Below are positions 4,050-64,000 of a DNA stretch of 64,000 bases, piece after piece. Position 1 is the stretch's first letter; the number at the start of each line of letters is the position of its first letter. Source of the stretch: an uncultured bacterium (GTDB lineage Bacteria; Armatimonadota; DTGP01; CAYSAW01); contig CAYSAW010000006.1 of assembly GCA_964429225.1 (NCBI GenBank), forward strand, positions 89,559 to 153,558, given 5' to 3'. The notes beneath the pieces are model-generated. The model was not told where the DNA came from. It was given only the letters and a program-made list of their open reading frames with translations, and did no database searches. The position numbers were made by a program, and so were the translations under genes.

Positions 4050-5216
4050 CTAATATTCCGGTTCGAATTCCCGGGCTGCTTCTACCATTGCTAAGATATT
4101 CTCGGGTTTCACGGCGGGGGCAATAGAGCAGGCACTGCTCAGGATATAGCCTCCGCCGGGAGAGCCAATCCTTAAGCGGTAGAGGGCATCCTTTCGGACT
4201 TCTTCCGGGCCTTTCCGGAGAAGGGTGTTGACGGAGTCAATATTCCCCTTAAAGAAGATGCGGTGCCCCCAGGCTTTCTTCGCTTCTTCCAAATCGGTGT
4301 TTCCTAGGGGAGGGGGATCGAGGGTTTCGATACCGTCTATCTCAGTTTCCACCATTAAAGCGAGGCGATCTCCGATCGCTCCACAGGTGTGGGTGTAGAT
4401 TTTGGCCCCCGCTTGGTGAACGGCTCGAGCCAGTTCGCGTTCGTAAGGGACGATGAACTCCTCATACATCTCTCGGGAGATAAACCCTCCTCCGGCATAA
4501 GGGGAGGAGATTTTAATCGCGTCGCAACCATGTTGAACCTGAGCGACACACCAAGCGGCAGCACAACGGGTAAAGTATTCGAGAAGTCGGTGACAGCGCT
4601 CAGGCTCGGTGAGGAGGGCCAATAGGGCATTCTCCATCCCTAAGAAATTGAGGAGATAATCCGAAGGGGCTTTAGTTTCTCCATGGATAGAATATTTATC
4701 GCCGACCCTTCGGAGGATAGTGTCAATAGCGGTGAAGTAGAAATCCGGGAATTGGTCTGGTTCAGTGAACCAGTGAAGGCCCTTATGAAGCCACCAGTGT
4801 TTCAGGCTTTCGGGGATGGCTTCGGGGTCAATGGGTTGTTCTAAGTTGACTTCTTCGATATTGGGAGGGGTATAATCCTCCGGAGGATAATAGTAGGGGT
4901 CATCGTTAGGCCGAAGTTCAATCGCCCCTCCATCGGGGAAGACGAGTTTAACCCCTTCCTCACTCTTCTCGACTCGTTCTATAAGGTCCCAGACCGCTTC
5001 TTCCCGGCCGGGTTTATGGATCAGGATTCCGTCGAAGTCATATTTATCTCTGATCTGGAGAAGCCCCCGAACATATCCTTCGTTGGTGAAGTTGAACTCT
5101 TCAGGAGTAACCTCTGTGTTGAGAAGGATATGACCAATGGTTAACTGGCACATTACCGGAATTTTGGGGGGTTTTCCCCGGTCCATTGCAAGGGCTATCA
5201 GCTCTTTTCCCGTCAT
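4050..5216 (-). CDS. Uroporphyrinogen-decarboxylase (URO-D) family protein, MtaA/CmuA-like methyltransferase or decarboxylase
   Basis: The URO-D-like core (…YAGGGFISREMYEEFIVPYE…, C-terminal GGGYILSSACSI) starts at MTGKELIALAMDRGKPPKIPVMCQ. The ORF track extends to 5372, but the internal ATG at 5214-5216 has a GAGGA-like SD and leaves a normal divergent intergenic gap. The alternative start is 5372. Confidence 0.65.
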   Translation of the reverse strand: MTGKELIALAMDRGKPPKIPVMCQLTIGHILLNTEVTPEEFNFTNEGYVRGLLQIRDKYDFDGILIHKPGREEAVWDLIERVEKSEEGVKLVFPDGGAIELRPNDDPYYYPPEDYTPPNIEEVNLEQPIDPEAIPESLKHWWLHKGLHWFTEPDQFPDFYFTAIDTILRRVGDKYSIHGETKAPSDYLLNFLGMENALLALLTEPERCHRLLEYFTRCAAAWCVAQVQHGCDAIKISSPYAGGGFISREMYEEFIVPYERELARAVHQAGAKIYTHTCGAIGDRLALMVETEIDGIETLDPPPLGNTDLEEAKKAWGHRIFFKGNIDSVNTLLRKGPEEVRKDALYRLRIGSPGGGYILSSACSIAPAVKPENILAMVEAAREFEPEY

Positions 5217-5416
5217 AGTGGTTTCCTCGAAGGAGAATCTGGCATAATAGCTATTCGGAGGAGGGGGGAAAAGTTCCTTGAGGTCTCCTAGAACAGCTTT
5301 TGAAAGACCAAGAAACGAGGTATCGGCGGGGAATAACCCAAGGGTGGGGGCCACCCCGGGCTGGCTCTTCACAGAGGGGTCGGCTGTGATGGATTAGGCA
5401 GGAAGGATGTAAGCAC

Positions 5417-6799
5417 TTGATGCGTTTTCCAATAGTCATCCTCTTGACGCTCGCTTTATCGAGTCTCTTTTCGGATAGCCTTCTCAGTGAAGAGGCCGGG
5501 CTTGAAGTTTTCACTCTTTCTAACGGCGTACCGGTCATCTTCCAAAAAGAGAGTTCATCCCCTTTGGTAGCGATTGATCTTTGGGTCAAGGGAGGATCTT
5601 GCCTTCCAGACCTGGCTCCTGGTTCTGTCCACTTTTTAGAACACCTTCTCTTCAAGAAGAAGACCCCTTCCGGTCGCTCTTTGGATGAGGAGGCAGAGAC
5701 CTTGGGAGGCGTTCTTGAAGCTTATACTTCTCGGGATTGGATGCACTTCACTCTCGCCCTTCCTAAGGATAAGTTTTCCCAAGGTCTTCCCCTCTTGGCG
5801 AAGGTTCTTTCTCCACCCTCCTTCTCCGAGGAGGATTTATCCCGAGAGAGAGGTGTAGTCCTCGACGAAATCGTTTCCCAACGTTTGGCTCCGGCTAAGA
5901 GGTTAAAAGACCTTTTATGGGAGAAGGTTTACGGCAGTCATCCTTATAGCAGGCGGATACCCGGTTCTGTTGAGCAGGTCCTACGCCTGGGTCCAGCGGA
6001 TTTACAGAAAGCTTATCAGTATCTTTTTCGACCCGAAAACCTGAGGATAGTCATTGTCGGGAATCTTCCTTCCGACCAGGTTAAAAAGTCAGTTCAACAG
6101 ACCTTTGGTTCACTCTTTTCTAACCTAAAAGAAAAACAACCTCTTCCTAGATTGTCTACTATTCCCAGCAGGGTTTCCTGGCCAAGTAATCGAGATCTGG
6201 GCTTGATCCCCTTAGCGGGGACTGGGGGTAAGGGGGTATTGCTCCTTGCTTTTCCTGGCCCTACTATTGATCAAATACAAGAAGTATGGACCCTTGATCT
6301 CCTGAGTGTCCTTCTTGACGAGGGACCTTTAGGGTTGCTGAGTGATTTGCTGGTGAAGTCGGGGTTAGCCAAGGAGGTGGAAGTAGATTTTCTTACCCAA
6401 ATAGGGCCTTCTTTATTTGTGATTCAGGTAACCACTCAGCCTCAGCAGATCCCCCGAGTCCGGGAGGTCCTTCAGGAGGAGATCAATAATCTTTTAAAGA
6501 GGGTACAAAGTTCCGATTTGCTCCAGTCAGCTAAACAGAGACTTTTAACCCACTATGCTTTTGATACAGAGACAGTGATGGGTAAGGCTAGCTTCCTCGG
6601 TTTTTATGCTGTGGTGTCTTCCTTGGACAGAGCTCGAAGCTATAAAGAATCTATCTTAAAAATCTCGGGGGAAGAGGTTAGGAGAGTAATCGAGAAGTAC
6701 TTGAAAGCGGAAAAGGGCTACTGGTTAGTAGGGGTGCCGGCAACTCCTTCTTCTCCTGAGAGTGGGAGGGCTTATGAAGAGGGACGTAAAGGAAGTTAA
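5417..6799 (+). CDS. M16 family zinc peptidase (insulinase-like), catalytic subunit, secreted
   Basis: N-terminal signal peptide. Inverted zincin motif HFLEHLLF (HxxEH) is present. Length (460 aa) and architecture match pitrilysin-family enzymes. Confidence 0.8.
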   Translation: MMRFPIVILLTLALSSLFSDSLLSEEAGLEVFTLSNGVPVIFQKESSSPLVAIDLWVKGGSCLPDLAPGSVHFLEHLLFKKKTPSGRSLDEEAETLGGVLEAYTSRDWMHFTLALPKDKFSQGLPLLAKVLSPPSFSEEDLSRERGVVLDEIVSQRLAPAKRLKDLLWEKVYGSHPYSRRIPGSVEQVLRLGPADLQKAYQYLFRPENLRIVIVGNLPSDQVKKSVQQTFGSLFSNLKEKQPLPRLSTIPSRVSWPSNRDLGLIPLAGTGGKGVLLLAFPGPTIDQIQEVWTLDLLSVLLDEGPLGLLSDLLVKSGLAKEVEVDFLTQIGPSLFVIQVTTQPQQIPRVREVLQEEINNLLKRVQSSDLLQSAKQRLLTHYAFDTETVMGKASFLGFYAVVSSLDRARSYKESILKISGEEVRRVIEKYLKAEKGYWLVGVPATPSSPESGRAYEEGRKGS

Positions 6800-8207
6800 A
6801 GTTTTGCTTGCTACCCTCTTCTTCCTCCTCTCTTTGGCTGCTTGGGCGCAGGAGCAGGGGCTTTATAAAGTAACCTATCCGGAGGGGCTTACTGTAATCG
6901 TCGAAAGGCTTCCTAACGTTGAGGGCGTGGCGCTTACTGCTATGGTCCGAGTGGGAGGTTTGGATAACCAGGAGGGGAGGGTTTCCCAAGAAGCCCAGTC
7001 TCTGCTTGTTCATCTTCTGCTAAGAGAAGGATGTCATCCTGCCATTGCGGAGGATTTATCTCGGTTGTACCAAGAGGTGGGGGGGGGAGTTTCTGCTCTT
7101 GCAGGTGAAGAGGTGGCTGAATTTTCGGTGATCACTCTTCGGAGGAATTGGCAACTGGGAGTGGAATTGCTCTCTCTTCTTCTCACTCAGCCACGGATTA
7201 AGGAGTCCGATTTAGAGCAAGTTCGTCAGGAACGGATAGATCAGATAAAGGAGGAATCTCCTTGGGTAGAGGGGGTTCGGCAGTTGTTAGAAGATAAGCT
7301 CCTAGCTCGGAGGGGAGGAGGGTTCTCTCAAGGGGAGAAGGAGAAAGCTCTAAAACAGGTTACTCCCGAGTACCTTCAGCAGATATACCAACAATATTAT
7401 TGTTTAAGGAATATGATTGTCGTTGCTGTTGGGGATTTGGACCCTCCTTTTACTGCCGAATATATTGCCGAGTCTTTTAAGAAGAAGATCCCCGGTGGGC
7501 CTAAACCTTTAAGGGGGGCCGTCCGTAAGAAGAGGATAGATTATCCGAGAGATATAGAGATAGGTGAAACCCTGTTAAATCCTAGAGGGGAGACTGAGGT
7601 TACCATAGTGGAGGCGGAATCACCTTCAGCGGTGCTGGCGATGGGTTTTAAGGTGCCGGGGGTGGAGAGTCCTGACTATCCGGCTCTGCTAGTACTGAAT
7701 GCCCTTATTGGAGGAGGCAAGGGAAGTCGGCTTTTCCGGTATCTGCGTGAAAGGGAGGGGATTGGTTACGAGATCGGTGGGTGGCTTCCTCCCCGCTTAA
7801 AAGAAGGGATATTAATGTTTTATGTCATCACTCAGCCCTATCGAGTTAATCTACGAGGGGAGAGGGAACCTCTTTTAGAAAAAGCCCGTCGAATTATGGG
7901 AGAGCAGATCGAGGCGGTAACCCGAGGGGATTTTTCGGAAGCAGAGTTAATCCGCGCGCGACAATATATCAAAGGGAGTTGGCTGATCCGAAGGGAAAGG
8001 CTTTCGGACCGAGCTTCTTTGACTGGTTGGTGGGTACTGGCATCGATCCAAGAGGCTCATCCCGAAGATTTCCTAAAGCGAATCGAGGCTGTGAGCAGGA
8101 AACAAGTATTAGCAGTGGCGAAAAAATATATGAGAAGCCCCTCTATAGCGCTCATTCTTCCTCGGCAAGGGGGGCGGACGGATTCCTGGGGAGTGAACTC
8201 CCGGTGA
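6774..8207 (+). CDS. M16 family peptidase, probable non-catalytic partner subunit, secreted
   Basis: Signal peptide MKRDVKEVKVLLATLFFLLSLAAWAQ. M16-like length and layout but no HxxEH motif (LLVHLLLREG instead). Its ORF overlaps the upstream M16 gene by 38 nt, which suggests an operon. Confidence 0.7.
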   Translation: MKRDVKEVKVLLATLFFLLSLAAWAQEQGLYKVTYPEGLTVIVERLPNVEGVALTAMVRVGGLDNQEGRVSQEAQSLLVHLLLREGCHPAIAEDLSRLYQEVGGGVSALAGEEVAEFSVITLRRNWQLGVELLSLLLTQPRIKESDLEQVRQERIDQIKEESPWVEGVRQLLEDKLLARRGGGFSQGEKEKALKQVTPEYLQQIYQQYYCLRNMIVVAVGDLDPPFTAEYIAESFKKKIPGGPKPLRGAVRKKRIDYPRDIEIGETLLNPRGETEVTIVEAESPSAVLAMGFKVPGVESPDYPALLVLNALIGGGKGSRLFRYLREREGIGYEIGGWLPPRLKEGILMFYVITQPYRVNLRGEREPLLEKARRIMGEQIEAVTRGDFSEAELIRARQYIKGSWLIRRERLSDRASLTGWWVLASIQEAHPEDFLKRIEAVSRKQVLAVAKKYMRSPSIALILPRQGGRTDSWGVNSR

Positions 8208-8278
8208 ACCGCTGGGGTTTTGGAAGAAAGCGAAAGTTTCCATCATCTATACCACTCTGTCTGGAAGAGGAATAAGGG

Positions 8279-11200
8279 ATGAAGGCTGGAAAGGCTTGGC
8301 TTCTGGTGGCATTCATTCTCGGCTTTGGGCTTTTACCCTCGGAGGGTTTTGGTCAGAGTGAAGAGAACAAGCCTACCCCGGAACAGGCGCGGATGTACCG
8401 CTTATTCTGGGGGGAGGTACAAGCGGGAAACCTGCTTCGGCATCTGAAAAAATTGACCCAGGCTTCCTCCCGCGTCGTTGGTTACCCTGGAGCTGATCAA
8501 GCGGCTGATTACATCCTTTCTGAGTTTCGGAGGCTTGGTTTAGAAAATGTTCGGGAGGAGCGTTACTGGGCCACGGTCCCCATTGATGAAGGGGCCTCTT
8601 TAACCATTGAAGGGGCGCAAGGGAAACCAATACCCCTCTACGCTTTGTGGCCGAATAGTGTTCGTACCTCTCAACTGCCTCCAGAGGGGCTTACCCTTCC
8701 GATGATTTATGGAGGGAATGGAGCCATCGCTCATTTGAACGGCAAGACCGTAGAAGGGTCTGCGGTTTTAATGGATTTTAACTGTGGTTCGGAGTGGTTG
8801 AATTCCGCTCGCTTGGGAGCTAGGGCAATTCTCTTCATCGAGCCGGAGGAGACCAGCCGAGGAGAGGCGGAGGCGAAGTTCCTAACGGTTCCTCTCGATA
8901 TGCCTCGCTTTTGGGTTCCTCGCAAGTATGCCCCTGCTTTGATCGCTTTGTGTCGGTCTGCCATCCCTCCTAAAGTGACTCTTCGTTGCCGAATGCCCTG
9001 GAAGCGCGTCCAGGCCCGAAACATCTTCGGGGTAATTCCCGGGACGGACCCCGAATTGAAGAATCAGATTATTATCCTTGAGGCTTACTATGACTCGATG
9101 TCGGTGGTGCCTCGCTTGGCTCCGGGGGCTGAGAGTGCTTCTGGAGTTTCTGCTTTGTTGGAATTGGCTCGCCTCTTTAAGAAGTACCCTCCAAAACGTA
9201 CCCTTTGGTTCCTTGTTACCTCAGGCCATCACTTGGGTTTAGCAGGGATTCGAAATTGGATTGAGGCTCACTGGAAGGATTTGGAACAGAATAGCACGCG
9301 TCAGAACTTTAAAGCTTGGTTGACAAGAACCTTCCCCTTCCTCTTCCATTTTAAGACCCGAGAACCTTGGCCCATTTACTTACTCATCGGATTGGACCTT
9401 TCCACTCAGACAAAAGGTGTGGGTATCTTCTACAAAGGTTGGTACTACGATTTCCGGGAGGATCTTCAGAGTAAATATTCGGATATTGCCCGCGTCCATC
9501 GAGAAAATGCTGAAAAAGTGGCTCAGGTCCTAAACCTGAATATTGGGGAGCGCTTTGCTGATGGGGTAAATCCCATTTCAGGGAAGTCTTGGCGGAACTT
9601 CATCCCTGCTAAGCCTGCCTTTGACGCGGAAGCCTATGCGATGGCAGGGGGGAAAGGAGTCACCTTTGCGAGTATAGACGACGGCCGAATGTTGGTAGAC
9701 ACTCCACTAGATCAGCTCTCGAGGATTAATATCGCGAACCTGACAGAGCAGACGAAATTAATCGCTTGTTTGACCTGGCATGATACTTATGACCCTAACG
9801 GGATTGGGATTACTCAGGGGACACACTTTCCCATTGTAGAGCCCTCTCCTCTCGGACGATTAAGGCTTCAGGGAGGTTTTGCCAAGATTGTTGGGCAAGT
9901 GATGGAGTTTGATCCACGCATTAGTATTGTTCCCAGTAAGCCGATTTTAGGGAGTATTGCGGTTTTGAAAAAGTGGAATAAGTCCTATATGGGAGTTCGG
10001 GGGTATCAGTTTGAGTTGGTGGATGACCAGGCCCGGTTCCAGTTTATCGGAGCTCCTCCTCTCACTGCTTATGGAGGAGGAGTCCAAACCCAGATTGCCG
10101 CTTATAAAGTGGATGACCGTACTGGGGAGTTGATTTATGCTCCCGACCTTGGGGTTACTGGGGGGAAAGAGAACTACCAAACCACCTTCCCCATTACTAC
10201 TGGTTTGAAAGAGACAGGTGTGGTCGTTTTCCGGTGCAATACCACTGCTCTTTATGACTTTGTGGATCCCCAAACTTTGCGGAGCTTGCCCACTATTAGT
10301 GTATTAGATTCGGTGAGCAACGGCGAACCCCGGATGTACGGCTTTGATAAGACCGTTCCTGAGCGGTTGGTCTCCCATATTGAGGATGTTGCCTTGATCT
10401 ACGCTCAAAAGGGGAATCGAGCCCTGGGCATTGAGCCTACTCGGGTGAAGATACTAGGATCTGCTGGGCCAGGGGCTATCCGGATGGTTCTGCTCAATAT
10501 GGCGGCGCGTCTCCCGAACGGTCAAATCCTCCGGGCGGACCAACTCCAGTATTTCCAAGGAGAGATCCCTCTCGATCGCCTCCAGCCTGTGGATACTGAA
10601 GGCCAGGGGTATGAGTTGAAAGGGGGTACTCTTTACAACACTCCTCTTCTTGCCGCCTGGGATATGTATGTGCTTAATGATGCCCGCATTAAAAAGCTAG
10701 CCCGCCACCGAATCATTAATCCCGCCATTGATGATCTCCATAATCGAGGGCGTCGAGAGCTCCAAGCGGCGTTAGTAGCGTTTCGTAACCGCCAGTGGGA
10801 TGAGTTCGACTCCCGGGCCCGCGCGGCCTGGGGCTATGAGTCCCGAGCTTATCCTGACGTCCGCCGCACGATGAATGACGTAGTTAAGGGAGTAATCTTC
10901 TACCTCTTCCTCCTCTTGCCTTTCTCCTATTTCTTTGAGCGGTTAGTTATCGGAAGCAAATTCCTCGTTCATCAGGTCCTTTGGACTTTGACCACCTTTA
11001 TTGTCATCTTCGTTATTTTCCGCTATGTCCATCCCGCCTTTGATATTACGATGAACCCCTTAATCGTTCTGCTGGCCTTCGTTATGTTGGCCCTCTCGAT
11101 CTTGGTTATTGGAATGATCTCCGGCCGGTTTGAGAAGGAGCTTAAAGAGTTTAACAAGCAGGTTTCTGGAGTTCATCGAATTGATATTGGGCGGATGAGC

Positions 11201-12967
11201 ATAGCGGCTGCGGCCTTCTCTTTAGGGATTTCCAATATGCGGCGAAGGAAGGCCCGGACGATTCTCACTTGCATAACGCTCATTTTACTTACTTTCACCG
11301 TGCTGTCCTTCACCTCAGTAGTACCTACGGTGCGCTTCAATAAGGTTCCCGCGCCGGGAAGCCCTTACTATTTTGGGATTATGCTGAGGACTCCGGAGTG
11401 GGGTACCTTGGAGGAGTCTGCCTACCGGATCTTGCGGGATGAGTTTTCCCGAACTCGGCCAGTGTCTGCTCGAGCTTGGTTCTTTGGCACCCAGTTGGGT
11501 GAACAGAGCTTTATTACTCTGAAACGGGGAGATAAGCGCTATGATGTCAAGGCAGTGGTCGGTTTAACCCCGGAGGAGGAGCGTATCCTCGAGCCAGGAA
11601 AGCGATCCTTAATCGCTGGCCGTTGGTTCCTCCCCGGAGACCGGAACGTGGTCATCCTTCCTAAACCGGTTGCGGATAGCTTAAACGTTACCCCGGAGCA
11701 GGTGGGGATTGCCAAAATTTCCTTCACGGGCCAAGATTATACCGTAATCGGCATTGTGGATAAAGATAAATTTAAAGAGGTGAAAGACCTCGACACCGAA
11801 CCCTTGACTCCGGTGGACTTTATTCAAATGAACCGGCTTCAGTCTCAGGGGAGAACTTCGGGAGCGGCAGAGGAGGGCTTTCGGGAGTATATCCACCTAG
11901 AACCAGAAGCGTGTGCTTTTATCCCCTTCCAAACTGCTCTTAATATGGGGGCGGAAATTCGCTCCATTGCGGTGAATATGGTGACGCCGGAAGAGGTGAG
12001 GAAAACCCTGGGGAACTTAATGTTCCGTCTGGGGCTGAACCTCTACGGCGGAGAACAGGTGAAAGTAGGGAATCGGGTGGAGAATCGCACCTATCGCTTC
12101 TCCACCATTGGAGCCACGGCAGCAAAGGGAGGCGGGGATGTTTTCATTCCTATCCTTATCGCTGCGCTCATTGTTCTTAACACAATGCTGGGATCGGTTT
12201 ATGAGCGGGTTAAGGAGATTGGAATTTACAGCTCGATTGGCCTGGCTCCCAATCACATAGCAGCCCTTTTCATCGGAGAGGCGATGGTCTATGCGGTTCT
12301 AGGGGCGGTGGCCGGTTATCTCACCGGGCAGATAGCGGCGAAAATCGTAACCCTCATTCCCGGTATGGGAGCGTTGTATCTGAACTTCTCCAGCCTCTCC
12401 GCAGTACTCACCACCCTTGTTGTAGTGGGGGTAGTCCTTTTATCTACCCTCTATCCAGCCCGTAAAGCCTCAGAAGTAGCTACCCCGGCGATCGAACGCA
12501 CCTGGAAAGTTCCTGAGCCAGAGGGAGATGAATGGCACATCACAATGCCCTTTGCAGTTACAGGTATCCAAGCGGTTGGACTCAATTCTTTCCTCAGAGA
12601 ATGGTTTGAAGCCTATGAGGAGTACAGCATTGGTGACTTTGTGACCCAGGATGTTTCGGCCCAGGAAGTGATGTATGAGAAGGGGAAAGGATACCAGATC
12701 CGCCTTAAAGCTTGGTTGGCCCCCTTCGACTTGGGAGTAAGTCAAACTTGCTTGTTAGAGACGATTCCCACCGAGATGGAAGATGTCTATGAGCTGAAGC
12801 TGACCATTCACCGAGAAAGTGGCGATGTTTCTAACTGGAAGCGTATCAACCGTCGCTTCCTTAATACCTTGCGCAAGCAATTCTTGATTTGGAGAACCCT
12901 CCGTCAGGAAGAGCGGGAGAGATATTTGGTTCAAACCTCTGGAGAGGCTCAACCGGTATCCTCCTAA
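8279..12967 (+). CDS. Giant 1562-aa fusion: signal peptide + PA-domain/M28-like peptidase domain + polytopic membrane region + FtsX/MacB-type permease domain
   Basis: Signal peptide MKAGKAWLLVAFILGFGLLPSEGFG. The N-terminal PA domain plus an M28-like region (YYDSMSVVPRLAPGAESASGVSALLELARLF; FLVTSGHHLGLAGIRNW) place it in the M28 family. Three TM helices lie near residue 880-950, followed by an FtsX-like module. That module has TM1 (RRRKARTILTCITLILLTFTVLSF), an extracytoplasmic domain of about 400 aa, and TM2-4 (IAALIVLNTMLGSVYERVKEIGIYSSIGLAPNHIAALFIGEAMVYAVLGAVAGYL). A C-terminal tail of about 180 aa follows. Confidence 0.75.
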   Translation: MKAGKAWLLVAFILGFGLLPSEGFGQSEENKPTPEQARMYRLFWGEVQAGNLLRHLKKLTQASSRVVGYPGADQAADYILSEFRRLGLENVREERYWATVPIDEGASLTIEGAQGKPIPLYALWPNSVRTSQLPPEGLTLPMIYGGNGAIAHLNGKTVEGSAVLMDFNCGSEWLNSARLGARAILFIEPEETSRGEAEAKFLTVPLDMPRFWVPRKYAPALIALCRSAIPPKVTLRCRMPWKRVQARNIFGVIPGTDPELKNQIIILEAYYDSMSVVPRLAPGAESASGVSALLELARLFKKYPPKRTLWFLVTSGHHLGLAGIRNWIEAHWKDLEQNSTRQNFKAWLTRTFPFLFHFKTREPWPIYLLIGLDLSTQTKGVGIFYKGWYYDFREDLQSKYSDIARVHRENAEKVAQVLNLNIGERFADGVNPISGKSWRNFIPAKPAFDAEAYAMAGGKGVTFASIDDGRMLVDTPLDQLSRINIANLTEQTKLIACLTWHDTYDPNGIGITQGTHFPIVEPSPLGRLRLQGGFAKIVGQVMEFDPRISIVPSKPILGSIAVLKKWNKSYMGVRGYQFELVDDQARFQFIGAPPLTAYGGGVQTQIAAYKVDDRTGELIYAPDLGVTGGKENYQTTFPITTGLKETGVVVFRCNTTALYDFVDPQTLRSLPTISVLDSVSNGEPRMYGFDKTVPERLVSHIEDVALIYAQKGNRALGIEPTRVKILGSAGPGAIRMVLLNMAARLPNGQILRADQLQYFQGEIPLDRLQPVDTEGQGYELKGGTLYNTPLLAAWDMYVLNDARIKKLARHRIINPAIDDLHNRGRRELQAALVAFRNRQWDEFDSRARAAWGYESRAYPDVRRTMNDVVKGVIFYLFLLLPFSYFFERLVIGSKFLVHQVLWTLTTFIVIFVIFRYVHPAFDITMNPLIVLLAFVMLALSILVIGMISGRFEKELKEFNKQVSGVHRIDIGRMSIAAAAFSLGISNMRRRKARTILTCITLILLTFTVLSFTSVVPTVRFNKVPAPGSPYYFGIMLRTPEWGTLEESAYRILRDEFSRTRPVSARAWFFGTQLGEQSFITLKRGDKRYDVKAVVGLTPEEERILEPGKRSLIAGRWFLPGDRNVVILPKPVADSLNVTPEQVGIAKISFTGQDYTVIGIVDKDKFKEVKDLDTEPLTPVDFIQMNRLQSQGRTSGAAEEGFREYIHLEPEACAFIPFQTALNMGAEIRSIAVNMVTPEEVRKTLGNLMFRLGLNLYGGEQVKVGNRVENRTYRFSTIGATAAKGGGDVFIPILIAALIVLNTMLGSVYERVKEIGIYSSIGLAPNHIAALFIGEAMVYAVLGAVAGYLTGQIAAKIVTLIPGMGALYLNFSSLSAVLTTLVVVGVVLLSTLYPARKASEVATPAIERTWKVPEPEGDEWHITMPFAVTGIQAVGLNSFLREWFEAYEEYSIGDFVTQDVSAQEVMYEKGKGYQIRLKAWLAPFDLGVSQTCLLETIPTEMEDVYELKLTIHRESGDVSNWKRINRRFLNTLRKQFLIWRTLRQEERERYLVQTSGEAQPVSS

Positions 12968-13060
12968 AAGAAGGCATAAGGTATAAAGTATAGGGGAGAA
13001 AGGAAATGGGTTTTCTCCCCTCCTCTTTGTTGTTGAATCTTCTATAAGGAGTAAAACCTG

Positions 13061-13735
13061 ATGCAAATTTGGATGCGTGGCTTTCGTTTCTTTACCCTTT
13101 TCTTTTTGGTTATTGGCCTCGTTAGTAGCGTTGGGTCTGCACCTGGAAAAGCAGCCAAGAAAGGAGCGGGGTTCACCTCTTTAGTGATCCAGGGGAAGTT
13201 AATTAGCAAGCCTAATCAAGGATCGGTTAGGACAGAGAAGTCTTCTCTTTACGTTCAGAACAATCGGTTTCGCTGGGAGGAGGGGCCGATGGTACGGGTT
13301 TTTGATGGGAGCCGGCTCCTCCTTTGGGATACTCGATCTCCCCGAAAAGTGGCTATTGAGTTGACACCTCCTAAAGAATTACTGAACAGCAAGGGGAAAA
13401 CTGCCTCTCAGCTTCTAGCCCAGTTGAATGCCAGTCCTCAGAAGGGGAAGAAGATCGGCACGGGGAAGGTGGCTGGGTATCTTTGTGACATTTACCTGAA
13501 TGAGACCCCCAATGGGAAGCAGAAAGTGTGGCTTGCGAAGGACCTTGGGGTTCCTCTTCCCCTTCGAGTTCAGTTTACCGGGTCTATGGGGAGTATGGAG
13601 CTGGTGGCAGAATCAGTAAAAACCAATATAAAAATTGCGGAGGCCCTCTTTCGGTTGCCCGCGGGTTATTCGGTCACCCGACCTCCTGCTGGCCCACCGG
13701 GAGGCCCGCCCGCGGCTCCTCCTTCGAAGCGTTGA
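13061..13735 (+). CDS. Secreted hypothetical protein, DUF4412-like, with Pro/Gly-rich C-terminal tail
   Basis: Signal peptide (FFTLFFLVIGLVSSVGSA). The central segment KVAGYLCDIYLNETPNGKQKVWLAKDLG resembles the DUF4412 family. The C-terminus is PPAGPPGGPPAAPP. Confidence 0.45.
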   Translation: MQIWMRGFRFFTLFFLVIGLVSSVGSAPGKAAKKGAGFTSLVIQGKLISKPNQGSVRTEKSSLYVQNNRFRWEEGPMVRVFDGSRLLLWDTRSPRKVAIELTPPKELLNSKGKTASQLLAQLNASPQKGKKIGTGKVAGYLCDIYLNETPNGKQKVWLAKDLGVPLPLRVQFTGSMGSMELVAESVKTNIKIAEALFRLPAGYSVTRPPAGPPGGPPAAPPSKR

Positions 13736-16208: not shown

Positions 16209-16255
16209 CTGTAAGGAAGTGAGGGCACGTTCACCGTGCCCTCACTTCCTTACAG
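16209..16255. repeat. Perfect 21-bp inverted repeat (hairpin, 5-nt loop) immediately downstream of hflX
   Basis: CTGTAAGGAAGTGAGGGCACG-ttcac-CGTGCCCTCACTTCCTTACAG. No U-tract follows on either strand. Confidence 0.6.
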
Positions 16256-16376
16256 GGGCAAGAGAGGAGGATTTTTTCTCCTGGCGTTAAAAAGTCCTTT
16301 TGAGAAAAGAGAGACGGGAGGGAAGAATTATCTTGTTGTTTTTCCTGCGAACTTTACCTTTGAGGAGGGAGTTGAG

Positions 16377-17102
16377 ATGCATCGAAAGAGACTCTGCGGT
16401 TTCACCTTGATCGAGCTTTTAGTGGTGATTGCGATCATCGCTATTCTAGCGGCGATCCTTTTCCCGGTTTTCGCCCGGGCTCGGGAGAAAGCCCGTCAAT
16501 CCGTGTGCCAGCAACATCAGAAACAGTTTGCTGCCGCGTACCTTCAGTACGCTCAAGATTGGGATGAGGTGGTTCCCCCCTGGGTTCGTCCTGCAGATCG
16601 AACCCACCCTCTTGGATGGCATCTGCAGGATTTTCTCCAGCCCTATATTCGCAGTTATGATATGTTTAAGTGCCCTAGTGATGACGGCCGTCGAGTTCTC
16701 CGAGGGCCTACTGGCCCTGTGAATTATAGCTTCTGGCGTAATTCTTACTTGGACCGTTGGTCGGGTTATCTCCCTAATGAACCGATCTCCCTAGGAGAGA
16801 TCCCTCATCCGGGAACTACAGTTTTTATTTGTGATGGCCCGAGTAACGACGGTCAACACACCTGGGGGCTGAATCCTTCTCACCCTTTGCAGAAGCAATG
16901 GCCCGATTTCCGCTTTGGTGATGATCGCCATAATGGAGGCGGTAATTATGCCTTTATGGATGGTCATGTGAAGTGGTATCGTCCTACAGAGATTAAGACC
17001 ACTCGGACCGATGCGGATACAGATACTGAGCCGAAATGGACTTCCCCAGCTCACCCCAAACTCCCTAGAAATGATGGTACTCATCCCTGGTTCCGACCTT
17101 AA
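16377..17102 (+). CDS. Prepilin-type N-terminal cleavage/methylation domain protein, DUF1559 (H-X9-DG) family
   Basis: Start at MHRKRLCGFTLIELLVVIAIIAILAAILFPVFARAREKAR, a class III signal with the type IV pilin-like G/FTLIELLVV motif. The C-terminus carries the H-X9-DG signature NYAFMDGHVKW. An RBS GAGGAGGGAG lies upstream of the ATG at 16377. The ORF track's 16236 start sits inside the upstream hairpin. Confidence 0.8.
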   Translation: MHRKRLCGFTLIELLVVIAIIAILAAILFPVFARAREKARQSVCQQHQKQFAAAYLQYAQDWDEVVPPWVRPADRTHPLGWHLQDFLQPYIRSYDMFKCPSDDGRRVLRGPTGPVNYSFWRNSYLDRWSGYLPNEPISLGEIPHPGTTVFICDGPSNDGQHTWGLNPSHPLQKQWPDFRFGDDRHNGGGNYAFMDGHVKWYRPTEIKTTRTDADTDTEPKWTSPAHPKLPRNDGTHPWFRP

Positions 17103-17147: not shown

Positions 17148-18827
17148 ATGGCCTCTTCTCTTCGCTCTCTCGATCAAAAGGTATTAGAGCTTTTAAAGGT
17201 TCGCTTGGAGCCGATCTGGGGAGATTATCTCCTTTTTTATCAGTCGGAGGAGGCGAAGCGGTTACGAGCAGAGCAGGAGGTTCGCAAAAACCTCTTTCGT
17301 ACCGCCCTTGCTCCAAGCAACCTCCAGGCCCTCGATCAGGATCAACTGGCGGATATCCTCAAACACTTATTTTCGGCTCGCTATCCTAGCCGAGCCTCTC
17401 GCCTGGCTGTGGAGGGCAACGATCTGGAGGACTTAAAGTGGTCCCTTCACGACTTGCTTTGGGGCCAGGATGATCTTCCTTTGCGCTTTGATTCCGCTCG
17501 GCGGTCTATTCGGGGCTTGGGTACCGCTTCTCTCACTGAGATTCTTTACTGGGTTCACACTGACCAGTGCTTCCTCTGTAACCGCTGGGTGGAATCGGCT
17601 TTCCATTCTCTTGGGTTATGGCCCTCTTCAGCGCACTTGGAGCATCTTTCGGGCCTTCAATATGTTCAGATTTGTGAAGGCGCTCGATACCTTATGGCTT
17701 TACTCCCTTCCTCTACCCGAGAAGCGGGAGATTTTACTGATGTGGATTGCTTGGTAGCCTTCCTCCACTATCGTAAATCCCAAGAGCAGCCGGAATTACC
17801 CCAGTTAAAGGTGGTCACCCCGGAGGTTACGCCACTCTCCTTCTCCGCTTCAGAGAGGAAGACAAACCTCTCTTCAGAGGTTCTCCAAGAGCCTCAGGCC
17901 GGCCTGTCGGAACCAGGGGTGGGGCGGGTGGCGGAAGCCCCTCCACCAGAGTGGTCCCGTCAATCAGCCTTAGAGCAGCTCTCCCGAGAGACTTATCTCC
18001 CCCAAAGGTTTCTGGCAACAATAGAACGCTTGATTAGAAGTAAGGGACAGTTGATTTTCAAAGGGCCTCCAGGGACCGGAAAAACTTTTCTCGCTCGAAA
18101 AGTGGCCCAGTATCTGGCAGGCCCCGGGGGATTAGTTACAGTGGTTCAGTTCCATCCCTCCTACACTTATGAGGACTTTATTGAAGGCATCCGACCTCAG
18201 TCCATCTTGGTTCAAGGTCAATATGAAGTGACCTATCCAGTTCAGGAGGGGGTCTTTTTACAATTTTGTCGTTTGGCCTCCCAACGGCCCGACACCTGCG
18301 TGTTGGTGGTAGATGAGATCAATCGAGGAGACCTTCCTCGCATCTTCGGGGAGCTTTTGTACAGCCTGGAGTACCGAGGGGAACCCGTTCTCCTCCCTTA
18401 CTCTCACCGATCCTTTATTCTCCCTTCTAATGTGTTAATTTTAGGGACGATGAATACCGCCGACCGGAGTGCTGGGAGCCTGGATTTGGCTTTACAAAGG
18501 CGCTTTGCCTTTGTTGAGCTGCGACCCGACGTCAACGTGTTGAAGCGATGGTTAAAGGCGAATCCAGTGAAGATTCCCAATTTGCTGGAATATTTCCATT
18601 TGAGTCAAGAGGCCGTGCCTCGGCCTGAAGCTCGTCCCGGCCACGGCTTCTTTATGGTTCCTGGTCTTGATGAGAAGGGGATGGAACTTCTTTGGCGCCA
18701 TACTATTTACCCTTATCTTGTCTCTTGTCTTTGGGATCAACCCCATCGTGCTGAGGAGTTTCGCTGGGAGAGAATTCAGAAGCGGATAGGGCCTCTTGAG
18801 AAACCTTCAGAGAAGGCTAAGGGGTGA
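17148..18827 (+). CDS. McrB-like AAA+ GTPase (type IV restriction system specificity/motor subunit) with uncharacterised 300-aa N-terminal domain
   Basis: Walker A FKGPPGTGKTF. McrB signature segments VLVVDEINRGDLPRIFGELLYSLEYRG, GTMNTADRS and LALQRRFAFVEL are present. The N-terminal 300 aa has no recognisable DNA-binding fold from sequence alone. Confidence 0.8.
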   Translation: MASSLRSLDQKVLELLKVRLEPIWGDYLLFYQSEEAKRLRAEQEVRKNLFRTALAPSNLQALDQDQLADILKHLFSARYPSRASRLAVEGNDLEDLKWSLHDLLWGQDDLPLRFDSARRSIRGLGTASLTEILYWVHTDQCFLCNRWVESAFHSLGLWPSSAHLEHLSGLQYVQICEGARYLMALLPSSTREAGDFTDVDCLVAFLHYRKSQEQPELPQLKVVTPEVTPLSFSASERKTNLSSEVLQEPQAGLSEPGVGRVAEAPPPEWSRQSALEQLSRETYLPQRFLATIERLIRSKGQLIFKGPPGTGKTFLARKVAQYLAGPGGLVTVVQFHPSYTYEDFIEGIRPQSILVQGQYEVTYPVQEGVFLQFCRLASQRPDTCVLVVDEINRGDLPRIFGELLYSLEYRGEPVLLPYSHRSFILPSNVLILGTMNTADRSAGSLDLALQRRFAFVELRPDVNVLKRWLKANPVKIPNLLEYFHLSQEAVPRPEARPGHGFFMVPGLDEKGMELLWRHTIYPYLVSCLWDQPHRAEEFRWERIQKRIGPLEKPSEKAKG

Positions 18828-18957: not shown

Positions 18958-20172
18958 GTGGGGGCCAACAAAGTGCCTAAGAAGCACTTGGTTTTAAGGG
19001 AGTCGAGTGTTCGCCGGGGGGTGGAGTTTCCTTTCGAGGAGGTGATAGAAGTCACTCGCTCCTTCTCCAATGTGCTAACCTTTGTTCCTTCCTCTAGGGG
19101 GCATCGGTTTGACATCTACACCAAAGATTTTGTAGGGGTTCTTCAAGTCAATGATTGGAAGATCACTATCTTGCCAAAAGGGGGATGGGTAGCTCTTTTC
19201 CCTTTGCTAGCTAAAATCCGTTACTGGCCAGAGATAGAGGGAGATTCTACCACCGCCTATCGGGTTCGTAAGGGTTTCTTAGAAACGGTAGCTGGGTGTT
19301 TTTTGGAGATGCTTAAGCCCCTTCTCCGAAGAGGTTGGGCGGAAGTCTTCCACAAAGAGGCGAATTTCACCCCAACAGTAAGAGGGCGTATTCAGTGGAA
19401 TCTTCCCTCCTACCGGCGTACTCCTCCCTCCTTCTGTTGTGAATATCCCTACCGGACCAAAAACCTCCCGCCGAATCAATTGATCAAGAAGGCTCTTCAA
19501 GCTTTATCCTTTTTCCCTGAGCTAGAGCAAGATTTTAGATCGCAAATTGACCGTTTACTGGAGGATTTAGAGGAGGTGGGGGAGTTAACCCTTCCTCCGG
19601 AAGAAGTGAATGCTCCCTTTCAGCGGCCGGAGTATCGCCCCGTGTTAAACTTAGCTCGTTTAATTGTTGCTGGAACCAGCCCTTACTGCTTATCTGTTGA
19701 TAGTACCTCCTCCCCTCCTTTGCCGGCCTTTCTTCTCTCCTTGTCTCGGATCTTTCAGGATTACGTTACCGCAATTCTTTCGGAGAAGCTAGAGCCGATG
19801 GCTTATTGGGTAAAGCCGGAGCCTCGCTTTCTCCTCTCCTCAGAAGAAAAGTCTTTGGAAATCAAACCCGATCTGGTCCTCTATGATGAGGCTCCTATAG
19901 GGGTTGTGGAAGTTAAGTATAAATACGGGGATAACTTGCCGGCCCCTGAGGATTTCTATCAGGTTGTGACTTATGCTACAATGATGAACATCCAGGAGGC
20001 TTTCTTAGTTTATCCGGGGCGAAGGTCTCCTTTATGCTTCTCTTTAACCCCTCATTTAAGGGTTCATCTCCTCTTCGGTCCTCTTTCGGGAAGCCCCTCC
20101 CAGATAGAGGAAGAGTGGAAAGCTTTGGGAGATTATATTGAGAACCAAATTTCCAAGTTCGTTACCGGGTAG
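18958..20172 (+). CDS. McrC-like nuclease subunit (PD-(D/E)xK)
   Basis: It lies immediately downstream of the McrB-like gene. The C-terminal PD-(D/E)xK-like motif PDLVLYDEAPIGVVEVKYKY is present. GTG start with GGAGG SD. Confidence 0.65.
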   Translation: MGANKVPKKHLVLRESSVRRGVEFPFEEVIEVTRSFSNVLTFVPSSRGHRFDIYTKDFVGVLQVNDWKITILPKGGWVALFPLLAKIRYWPEIEGDSTTAYRVRKGFLETVAGCFLEMLKPLLRRGWAEVFHKEANFTPTVRGRIQWNLPSYRRTPPSFCCEYPYRTKNLPPNQLIKKALQALSFFPELEQDFRSQIDRLLEDLEEVGELTLPPEEVNAPFQRPEYRPVLNLARLIVAGTSPYCLSVDSTSSPPLPAFLLSLSRIFQDYVTAILSEKLEPMAYWVKPEPRFLLSSEEKSLEIKPDLVLYDEAPIGVVEVKYKYGDNLPAPEDFYQVVTYATMMNIQEAFLVYPGRRSPLCFSLTPHLRVHLLFGPLSGSPSQIEEEWKALGDYIENQISKFVTG

Positions 20173-63678: not shown

Positions 63679-64000
63679 GGGGGCGATGGGTCTCGACAGG
63701 GAGCTGTTTGGCAGGAGTGGCAGGCCGAGGTGCCGAAGGCCTCGTAAAAATCGGCAACCGATAAGTGCCAACAATTACGGCTACGCTCTCGCTGCCTAAT
63801 TAAAGAGCAGCGCGTCCGCGCGGACCCTGGCCGGGGGAGCCAAAGCGGGCGTGTCTAAACCGGCCTCCTCATCCCTAATAGCCCACGTTGGGGATGGGCA
63901 GAAAAGAGTGGGCTAGCTCCGGCGGATCCTGCTCGTGGGAGCCAAAGGAGCAAAGTTCAAAACACGAGCTAAGCCTGTAGAAGCTTCTGCGGGACGCTCT
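63679..64000 (+). ncRNA. ssrA: tmRNA (ssrA), 5' portion; continues past window end
   Basis: The 5' GGGGGCGA acceptor-stem start and GGCCUCGUAAAAA element match tmRNA. The resume-codon context AUAAGU|GCC sets a tag ORF at 63767-63796: GCC AAC AAT TAC GGC TAC GCT CTC GCT GCC TAA, encoding ANNYGYALAA with the canonical ALAA end. A TATAAT -10 lies at 63660-63665. Confidence 0.85.

Follow-up and report, generated by a model that had tools for sequence, protein, structure and literature searches.

The stretch of DNA considered here, called the window throughout, covers 64,000 nucleotides (nt) of a contig from an uncultured bacterium of the phylum Armatimonadota (CAYSAW010000006.1, assembly GCA_964429225.1). 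Near its beginning, four consecutive genes of the forward strand encode a pair of M16-type peptidases (M16A and M16B), a giant protein of 1562 amino acids (aa) and a small protein of 224 aa, which a preliminary description had regarded as a dedicated system of envelope proteolysis. We lean towards a different view, namely that the locus represents one detached piece of a larger, undescribed envelope system, not a self-contained four-gene protease operon. The proposal of a four-gene proteolytic system is only in part supported by our analysis: the M28-type active site of the giant protein is degenerate, the synteny of the four genes is not conserved, and none of the conserved partners of the giant gene is found in the window.

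The comparison involved about 100 related loci in total, comprising 13 genome loci from GTDB, the contigs of selected homologues of the giant protein and 80 metagenome loci from JGI, the latter collected around gene X (described below), which in relatives comes after the giant gene. Duplicates were removed before counting, and labels such as L001, L014 and L016 designate individual relatives' loci.

The giant protein and its M28-like module

The giant protein is the large membrane subunit of an ATP-binding cassette (ABC) 'mechanotransmission' complex of type VII, the class to which MacB, LolCDE and FtsEX belong. Transporters of this class convert cytoplasmic ATP hydrolysis into mechanical work in the periplasm. 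A membrane-tethered module of FtsX type had been suggested by the preliminary description, and the position of the protein in the FtsX/MacB class is borne out by matches in Pfam, PDB and Foldseek. Pfam recognizes Peptidase_M28 (1.1e-9, aa 248-355) and FtsX (8.2e-16, aa 1289-1398), together with MacB_PCD below the cut-off (1.7e-4), and the PDB sequences matching the C-terminal half are MacB (5lil, 5.5e-8), YtrF (1.3e-6) and LolC (1.7e-4). Hydropathy analysis indicates a signal-like N-terminus, three transmembrane (TM) segments at aa 868-947 and four TM segments at aa 994-1391. The AlphaFold (AF2) model of aa 1-880 has a predicted local distance difference test (pLDDT) of 91.3 and a predicted template modelling score (pTM) of 0.89; in Foldseek, its first ~500 residues match the Aneurinibacillus aminopeptidase 2ek8 (6.3e-24), BSAP, PaAP, the transferrin receptor and GCPII, with the entries 6hc6 and 8acr among these matches. 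For the remaining part, aa 881-1562, the model is moderate (pLDDT 76, pTM 0.48), and the structures matched by the C-terminal half are MacB (5lil, 6.1e-14), LolCDE, YtrEF (9o9x) and FtsEX, with a TMt of 0.60 for the MacB periplasmic domain 3ftj. The resulting architecture is as follows.

8279..12967, + strand: giant envelope protein, a predicted pseudo-M28 ectodomain fused to a type VII ABC (MacB/LolC/E-type) membrane domain (Pfam, PDB, AF2/Foldseek)
8279..8353, + strand: signal peptide or anchor, ~aa 1-25 (hydrophobic aa 1-19; low pLDDT at aa 22-26, folded from ~aa 30)
8381..9838, + strand: periplasmic PA + M28-fold module with degenerate active site, ~aa 35-520 (AF2, Foldseek)
9866..10873, + strand: beta-rich periplasmic domain or domains, ~aa 530-785, and helical stalk, ~aa 788-865 (AF2 secondary structure)
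10880..11119, + strand: three extra TM helices, aa 868-947, returning the chain to the cytoplasm (hydropathy, model)
11258..12451, + strand: FtsX/MacB-type 4-TM domain, with TM1 at aa 994-1012 and TM2-4 at aa 1288-1391 (Pfam, PDB, Foldseek)
11315..12139, + strand: periplasmic core domain between TM1 and TM2, aa ~1013-1287 (Foldseek)
12521..12943, + strand: cytoplasmic C-terminal alpha/beta domain, ~aa 1415-1555, conserved family-wide (model, pLDDT ~75-90)

The cytoplasmic C-terminal domain is composed of beta-alpha-beta4-alpha2 elements and its Foldseek matches, of START, Bet v 1 or PsbP-like type, are weak (E 0.006-0.04); a relaxed Pfam scan of aa 351-874 and aa 1401-1562 gave no match. Homologues of the full-length type number at least 867, and every named source among them belongs to the Armatimonadota, including the Chthonomonadales. 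The best 120 are nearly all 1450-1800 aa long and 49-97% identical over most of their length, and Candidatus Hebobacteria, a class of the same phylum, are the source of two of the related genome loci.

The giant gene had been introduced as a peptidase-permease fusion. The fusion itself is real, since an M28 fold is joined to an FtsX/MacB domain, but the word peptidase needs to be qualified, because the canonical catalytic residues of M28 enzymes are replaced throughout the family. The protein has the PA/M28 fold without the co-catalytic di-zinc site (His, Asp, Glu, Asp, His) and the general-base Glu of M28 peptidases. In the HMMER alignment to 2ek8, AYYDS stands against SHHDS, GA-ES-ASG against GANDDASG and SGHHLGL against GAEENGL, amounting to the changes H to Y, DD to ES and EE to HH. 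Conservation of the site was scored over 118 and 61 homologues. Among the 118, position 270, that of the first His ligand and a Tyr in the window, has Y in 96, F in 18 and H in 3; position 285, that of the bridging Asp and a Glu in the window, has E in 95 and D in 22; position 317, that of the general-base Glu, is occupied by the same His as in the window in 117; and position 318, that of the Glu ligand and a His in the window, has F in 86, H in 15 and Y in 14. The fourth zinc ligand is kept as the invariant D373 (GLDLS for NLDM) and the last His has become Asp in D474, present in at least 90% of homologues (VDTPLD for YHTxxD), the equivalence in these two cases being drawn from the motif. The window's giant protein thus carries Y270, D272, E285, H317, H318, D373 and D474 at its site, and the replacement residues are themselves conserved across the family.

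With three of the five zinc ligands and the catalytic Glu replaced family-wide, the module is best read as a predicted pseudo-peptidase that would bind or present something, instead of working as an aminopeptidase. Nicalin, an M28-like protein devoid of peptidase activity, is a direct PDB sequence match of the giant protein (4.6e-6). The giant protein shares the PA+M28 fold with nicalin, the transferrin receptor and GCPII, and with the first two also the loss of the zinc site, so that its module presumably serves for binding; it differs from all three in being bacterial, in being fused to an ABC permease and in having its own conserved set of replacements, Y/E/H/F/D.

A conserved gene module, dispersed in the window's genus

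In relatives, the giant gene opens a series of six genes in the order giant, X (OPT-like), Y (with conserved Cys and His), PqqD-like, mini-FtsX and LolD-like ATPase. X follows the giant gene in 73 of the 76 cases with at least 2.5 kb of downstream sequence; two of the three exceptions merely have an insertion of 1.5-2.1 kb, and the third is the sister species of the window's organism. Likewise, among the 54 X genes for which the downstream sequence is long enough, 48 precede Y, PqqD-like, mini-FtsX and ABC genes. The median spacers within the module are 76.5, 77, 15 and 52.5 nt, and no further conserved neighbour family was found beyond the six genes across the ~100 loci.

X proteins have ~650-690 aa, at least 11 hydrophobic segments and the invariant motifs ESWRW, IPIPF and GRGD; their Pfam matches to OPT are weak and limited to a minority of members, NCBI names them 'peptide transporter', and a profile search against PDB sequences gave nothing significant. 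Y is a cytoplasmic protein of ~300 aa without TM segments, which has the invariant residues C120/C123, C281 and C312-H313 and no match in Pfam, NCBIfam or PDB sequences. In relatives, the PqqD-like protein gives PF05402 matches of 4e-12 and 1.1e-12, and its best NCBIfam models are the PqqD chaperones of lasso, PQQ and GeoRSP systems. The mini-FtsX protein, of ~190-230 aa, has just ~30 residues between its first two hydrophobic segments and therefore no periplasmic domain. The ATPase, 77-84% identical between lineages, scores best in NCBIfam with LolD (230 bits) and about equally with the darobactin exporter DarD (214.6), FtsE (205.1) and MacB, each value lying under the curated cut-off shown for the model. 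The six genes would then combine a heterodimeric type VII ABC engine with three partners that are either peptide-themed or uncharacterized.

Variants of the module are found in some subclades. For example, a gene of ~275 aa with a membrane N-terminus is inserted between X and Y in one of them (L002:16946-17780, L059, L061, L062, L073, L083, L087 and L096), and two small membrane-protein genes, of ~160 and ~120 aa, lie between the giant gene and X in another (L040-L045, L056). In L048, L065, L072, L076 and L078 X occurs without giant gene or downstream set within up to 10 kb, and L100 has the giant gene and X only; the loci with X alone represent either further lineages in which the module is dispersed or paralogues of X that stand on their own.

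A search of the literature for a description of the module found none. For an isolate of the Armatimonadota, a diderm envelope with a periplasm of 55 nm has been reported (PMC11535203), and among the proteins detected in cultures of the isolate Fervidibacter sacchari are an 'M28' peptidase and an 'OPT superfamily oligopeptide transporter' (PMC11535203), which could be the giant protein and X.

Where are these partners in the window's genus? With X, Y, PqqD, mini-FtsX and ATPase as queries, tblastn found none of the five in the 64-kb window, the sole match being the FtsX domain of the giant protein itself, and three queries of MacB/LolD-type ABC ATPases (tblastn, E<0.01) found no ABC ATPase anywhere in the 64 kb. 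The sister species, whose giant protein is 97% identical, has the same derived order of M16, M16, giant, 224-aa, CDF and HflX genes. The exact giant protein of the window also occurs on contig SRR11582145_2630 and an orthologue of X on contig SRR11582145_24257 of the same sample; the corresponding contigs in NCBI are also distinct, with 202,707 bp for the giant protein and 128,613 bp for the X orthologue. Behind this X, which shares 72% identity with the L014 protein, come a T2SSE-type ATPase and a set of sigma and anti-sigma genes, but not Y. The tetranucleotide profile of its contig correlates with an independent part of the window at r=0.948, which compares with 0.958-0.970 for the window's own species and no more than 0.405 for every other lineage. 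The X of the sister species is equally solitary, with 10 kb of context on each side.

Since none of the five genes is present in the window and X stands alone on another contig, the module is dispersed in the window's genus, where the giant gene keeps only the M16 pair upstream. Despite this dispersal the giant gene is under very strong constraint, the ratio of nonsynonymous to synonymous substitution rates (dN/dS) being 0.025. HflX lies downstream both in the window and in L014/L030. After HflX the window has a prepilin-type protein with N_methyl and DUF1559 domains (16236-17102, +) and then a McrBC-type restriction pair, formed by an AAA_5 ATPase (17148-18827, +) and McrC (18958-20172, +), a defence island beside the break point of the module. 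The presence of McrBC after HflX would suit a region prone to rearrangement.

The M16 pair and the LolA-fold gene

The other genes and signals of the locus are the following.

5417..6799, + strand: M16A, secreted M16B-type zinc peptidase, predicted active subunit (Pfam, PDB matches, hydrophobic aa 5-23)
5630..5644, + strand: HFLEH zinc-binding and catalytic motif of M16A, aa 72-76 (aligned with HFLEH of 3hdi)
6762..8207, + strand: M16B, secreted M16 partner without HxxEH, predicted non-catalytic subunit (M16_C, SLLVH)
12992..13021, + strand: stem-loop after the giant stop codon with a C/T-rich run behind it, a probable terminator or attenuator (11-bp stem)
13061..13735, + strand: 224-aa secreted protein of predicted LolA fold, DUF4412-like, with Pro/Gly tail (Pfam, profiles of relatives)

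The preliminary picture of four co-oriented genes of the + strand with signal peptides is accurate, in that the open reading frames (ORFs) lie where they had been placed and each product has an N-terminal hydrophobic segment, which is the single one in hydropathy plots except for the giant protein, with its seven more. M16A (5417-6799) has 460 aa from a TTG codon, next to which the ATG at 5420, preceded by AGGAAGGA, is the probable start; M16B (6762-8207) has 481 aa from a GTG codon, the likely start being the ATG at 6774 after the ribosome-binding site GGGAGGG; the giant gene extends from 8279 to 12967 and the fourth gene, the product of which ends with the tail TRPPAGPPGGPPAAPPSKR, from 13061 to 13735. 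Compared with the sister species, to which the DNA is 85% identical, dN/dS values are 0.116 for M16A, 0.168 for M16B, 0.025 for the giant gene and 0.197 for the 224-aa gene, with 0.06 for the neighbouring HflX. All four ORFs are real genes under purifying selection.

M16A matches both Peptidase_M16 (1.3e-21) and M16_C (1e-21) in Pfam, and its matches among PDB sequences include 3hdi as the best (1.5e-21), the 'active subunit' 3amj_C (4.8e-19), PqqL and an AlbF homologue; its distal Glu is found in ERGVVLDEI, aligned to ERKVVFEEI of 3hdi. M16B matches M16_C alone (3.3e-25), the N-terminal M16 domain going undetected, reads SLLVH where M16A has HFLEH, and begins with a signal-like segment ending AWA/QEQ. 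The genes overlap by 38 nt from the GTG or by 26 nt from the ATG at 6774. Hence the earlier account of an M16 peptidase with HFLEH, overlapped by a partner deprived of HxxEH, proves correct (aa 72-76 against SLLVH, 26-38 nt), and its proposal of a pitrilysin heterodimer is supported, as the two proteins look like the active and inactive subunits of such a dimer with translational overlap. They resemble the M16B heterodimers of Sphingomonas sp. A1 (3amj), the mitochondrial processing peptidase (alpha/beta) and PqqF/G in that one subunit has HxxEH and the distal Glu and the other lacks them, and in having adjacent, overlapping genes for products of ~450-480 aa, each with the M16 + M16_C fold; they differ in the signal peptides of both M16A and M16B and in the location of the pair beside a type VII ABC subunit. 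Two relatives depart from this picture. In L001 (104-2833) both M16 genes read as a single ORF of 909 aa with HLLEH in its first half, owing to a fusion or an assembly error, and in L016 (6998-9766) both subunits are deprived of HxxEH, with ALLQR and LLMSR at the motif positions, so that the pair would be wholly non-catalytic.

Upstream of the giant gene, the M16 pair is present in 6 of the 40 informative loci, plus three partial ones. In the neighbour-joining tree of the giant protein, the M16-positive loci all fall within one of three major clades, with a patchy distribution inside it, and the co-oriented M16-M16-giant order that had been described for the window does recur in these relatives, whose outer flanks differ. 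The spacer between M16B and the giant gene is 71 nt long and has no stable structure (z +1.0), nor was any terminator-like site found in it. The link of the M16 pair with the giant gene is therefore supported by the gene overlap, by the short unstructured spacer without terminator, by an adjacency that is kept while the outer flanks change and, moreover, by the survival of this adjacency after the departure of the five downstream genes in the window's genus. Given also that its occurrences all belong to one clade, the pair is probably a co-transcribed, clade-specific accessory of the giant gene.

The situation is different beyond the giant gene, where the hairpin at 12992-13021 (-28.1 kcal/mol, z -2.3) has a counterpart at the same place in the sister species, with a different stem sequence (z -2.8). 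An unstructured spacer before the giant gene and a hairpin past it fit a transcript of M16A, M16B and giant gene, and suggest that the 224-aa gene is transcribed separately or by read-through. Independent terminators between the genes, which had been named as evidence that would count against a common unit, were not found at the junction of M16B and giant gene and are probable at that of giant and 224-aa gene. The scans for terminator and promoter consensus are uncalibrated for Armatimonadota, and that for promoters, with 6 sites against 7.1 expected in shuffled sequence, was uninformative.

The description of the 224-aa protein as DUF4412-like, with a Pro/Gly-rich tail, is sound, for its own match is marginal (22.8 bits against a cut-off of 21.6, covering 40 residues) but is backed by relatives. 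A word-index search found three close homologues, namely its own cluster, the sister copy (83% identical) and one fragment, named 'outer membrane lipoprotein-sorting protein' by JGI; exhaustive phmmer retrieved 146 distant representatives, mostly of ~200-230 aa. A scan of 41 relatives gave DUF4412 for 24 (best 1.1e-19) and DUF2092, LolA_like, LolA or MucB_RseB for others, and the profile matches in PDB a lipoprotein-sorting protein, LolA, RseB and VioE, all weakly (E 0.0014-0.03). By these profile matches it is a predicted secreted protein with the fold of the LolA/LolB/RseB superfamily. That a gene of LolA fold adjoins one for a LolC/E-like permease is suggestive, but the arrangement is confined to the window's genus, and the 224-aa gene is probably a lineage-specific neighbour forming a separate unit outside the conserved module. 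The expectation of a conserved four-gene synteny fails in the same way, as tblastn against the 13 genome loci recovers the M16 pair from the closest relative alone and the 224-aa gene from none of them. We have consequently rejected the four genes as a unit, one of them being restricted to the genus and the M16 pair to 6 of 40 loci.

The flanks of the four genes in the window are unrelated to them, with URO-D-like and HDAC-like genes upstream on the opposite strand and a CDF transporter and HflX downstream. The nearest upstream gene (4050-5372, -) encodes a 440-aa protein of the URO-D/MtaA-like methyltransferase family, in which the Pfam match covers aa 210-435 only; its N-terminal ~200 aa have no Pfam assignment, and gene calls in the sister species start later (388 aa). 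A tmRNA gene (63679-64000, +; Rfam RF00023, 127 bits) runs off the end of the window.

Possible mechanism, alternatives and significance

What could a complex of this kind do? In the mechanism that we propose, the ATPase dimer would drive the motion of the giant/mini-FtsX heterodimer, and this motion would be relayed by the stalk to the periplasmic core domain and to the pseudo-peptidase module standing in the wide diderm periplasm, where a peptide or a protein N-terminus might be captured, presented or released. In the clade with M16 genes, the secreted heterodimer of active and inactive subunits, co-transcribed with the giant gene, would do the actual cleavage. The OPT-like X and the PqqD-like partner suggest that peptides may be handled also at the inner membrane or on the cytoplasmic side. 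Tentatively, and with the odds against so specific a proposal, the six genes could represent an unrecognized housekeeping machine of the envelope across the sampled Armatimonadota, an ABC-driven tower that handles the N-termini of peptides or proteins and for which M16 peptidases were recruited in one clade. Maturation of envelope proteins, or a signalling loop of peptide export and re-import, would be examples of such a function, each equally conjectural.

The module may be compared with several systems already known. The membrane and periplasmic core domains have their best matches of sequence and fold in MacB of MacAB-TolC and in YtrEF of B. subtilis, from which the module differs in having an unfused ATPase, no gene for a MacA-like membrane-fusion protein in the cluster, a giant/mini-FtsX heterodimer and the large pseudo-peptidase ectodomain. 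The PADLOC profile PDLC01991, named 'CARF_m8--CARF_LolE_TM', matches aa 827-1542 of the giant protein (1.8e-64, 216 bits), a span including the stalk, all TM helices, the periplasmic core and the C-terminal domain, with the last ~127 profile positions unmatched. So strong a match implies that proteins of this architecture have been catalogued before; yet the giant protein would differ from the profile's CARF proteins, insofar as no Rossmann-like CARF fold is evident in its model. A role in defence was considered from this match and rejected, since the ~100 loci have no conserved CRISPR or defence neighbours and no Rossmann-like domain is modelled. The sister model of PADLOC, 'CARF_Beta-galactosidase_LolE_TM', matches only the FtsX region of the giant protein, a hint that the same chassis may bear another ectodomain in other lineages.

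Among the alternatives, trafficking of lipoproteins or lipids in the manner of Lol is suggested by several resemblances with LolCDE. As in the latter, two different membrane subunits of FtsX/MacB type accompany a single gene for a LolD-type ATPase, and the segment between TM1 and TM2 forms a periplasmic core domain; the NCBIfam model matched best by the ATPase is LolD (230 bits), LolCDE structures are among the Foldseek matches, the envelope is diderm, and the window's next gene encodes a protein of the LolA/LolB/RseB superfamily. The giant/mini-FtsX pair and the ATPase would then extract lipoproteins, with the LolA-fold neighbour as their periplasmic carrier in this genus. We nevertheless judge this unlikely, given that scores are far under the cut-offs (LolD 230 against 307.75, LolC 22.9 against 473 and, for mini-FtsX, lolCE 52.7 against 362) and that the LolA-fold gene is fast-evolving, with just three close homologues, lacks conservation as a neighbour and has the hairpin between itself and the giant gene. 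Moreover, the small subunit here is without periplasmic domain, and a Lol function would leave unexplained the OPT-like, Y and PqqD-like partners as well as the 880-aa PA/M28-fold ectodomain, to which the giant protein adds three TM helices and a cytoplasmic C-terminal domain that LolCDE does not have. A regulator similar to FtsEX, in which the ABC engine would use an inactive peptidase-like adaptor to switch an extracytoplasmic hydrolase allosterically, be it the M16 pair or an enzyme of the cell wall, has a parallel: FtsEX works through EnvC, a catalytically dead LytM protein. The module could resemble FtsEX-EnvC/PcsB in coupling an ABC engine from the same class, for which Foldseek matches include FtsEX structures, to a dead extracytoplasmic module that may control a real hydrolase, and cell-wall genes do lie beside some clusters (SpoIID in L017, MreB/MreC in L016). 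However, these neighbours are not conserved, the coiled-coil adaptor or amidase is absent, the pseudo-enzyme is here of M28 fold and covalently fused, with the M16 pair as candidate hydrolase, and the FtsX_Gneg and FtsE models stay under their cut-offs (15.5 against 255 and 205.1 against 264.85). Such a regulator seems improbable as a separate explanation, and it overlaps with the view of a larger envelope system instead of excluding it.

The PqqD-like gene brings to mind another possibility, a pathway like those for ribosomally synthesized and post-translationally modified peptides (RiPPs), by which a peptide would be bound by the PqqD-like protein, modified by Y, exported by the MacB-type ABC complex and trimmed by M16 peptidases (cf. 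PqqF/G and AlbE/F). Consistent with it are the PqqD domain (4e-12) and its preference for PqqD chaperone models in NCBIfam, the PDB matches of M16A to PqqL and an AlbF homologue, the 214.6 bits of the ATPase on the darobactin exporter model and the invariant Cys and His of Y. Yet no conserved small ORF occurs in or between the genes, where spacers are of 15-77 nt and the inserts are clade-specific and not peptide-like; there is no radical SAM enzyme, cyclodehydratase or known maturase, X and Y matching no maturase family; and the M16 pair, a secreted one, is missing from most clusters. The module is also present throughout the sampled phylum with a conservation like that of housekeeping genes, in contrast with the sporadic distribution of RiPP clusters, and we consider a pathway of this sort unlikely, though somewhat less so than the original model. 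The latter, in which the M16 pair, an active M28/FtsX fusion and the DUF4412-like protein form one operon for extracytoplasmic proteolysis, appears very unlikely. It accounts for the common orientation of the genes, for their N-terminal signals and short spacers and for the recurrence of the M16-M16-giant order in one clade; it is contradicted by the family-wide replacement of the M28 catalytic residues, by a 224-aa gene that is restricted to the genus and lies behind a conserved hairpin, by the scarcity of the M16 pair (6/40 loci) and by the identity of the conserved partners, which are five other genes.

Returning to the view of a detached fragment of a larger envelope system, several points weigh against it. 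The function and the substrate proposed for the module are inferred. Y, PqqD-like, mini-FtsX and ATPase genes have not been located in the window's organism, and an intact complex is assumed there because of the strong constraint on the giant gene. The near invariance of D272, E285, H317, D373 and D474 could reflect a non-canonical metal site, with some hydrolysis possible, and the model for the C-terminal half of the protein is moderate (pLDDT 76, pTM 0.48). The M16 adjacency is patchy, being found in 6 of 40 loci and missing from L032 even if this locus is sister to the M16-positive L017 and L036, and neither M16 subunit of L016 has HxxEH; consequently the pair could be an inherited neighbour, not a functional partner.

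In terms of significance, each known member of the type VII ABC class has, to our knowledge, revealed a distinct envelope process. What has not been described for this class is a tower of 880 aa related to aminopeptidases and apparently inactive, three extra TM helices and a cytoplasmic C-terminal domain in the large subunit, a partner subunit without periplasmic domain and the association with OPT-like and PqqD-like proteins. For annotation, proteins of the giant family should not be labelled 'M28 family peptidase', and neither the M16 pair nor the LolA-fold gene should be counted among the core components. Conservation of the module extends over the sampled classes of a diderm phylum that has been little studied, and in the window's genus the giant gene evolves at a slower pace than HflX (dN/dS of 0.025 and 0.06, respectively). 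If the module were essential, it would point to a pathway of the envelope or of peptide handling that has no counterpart in model organisms.

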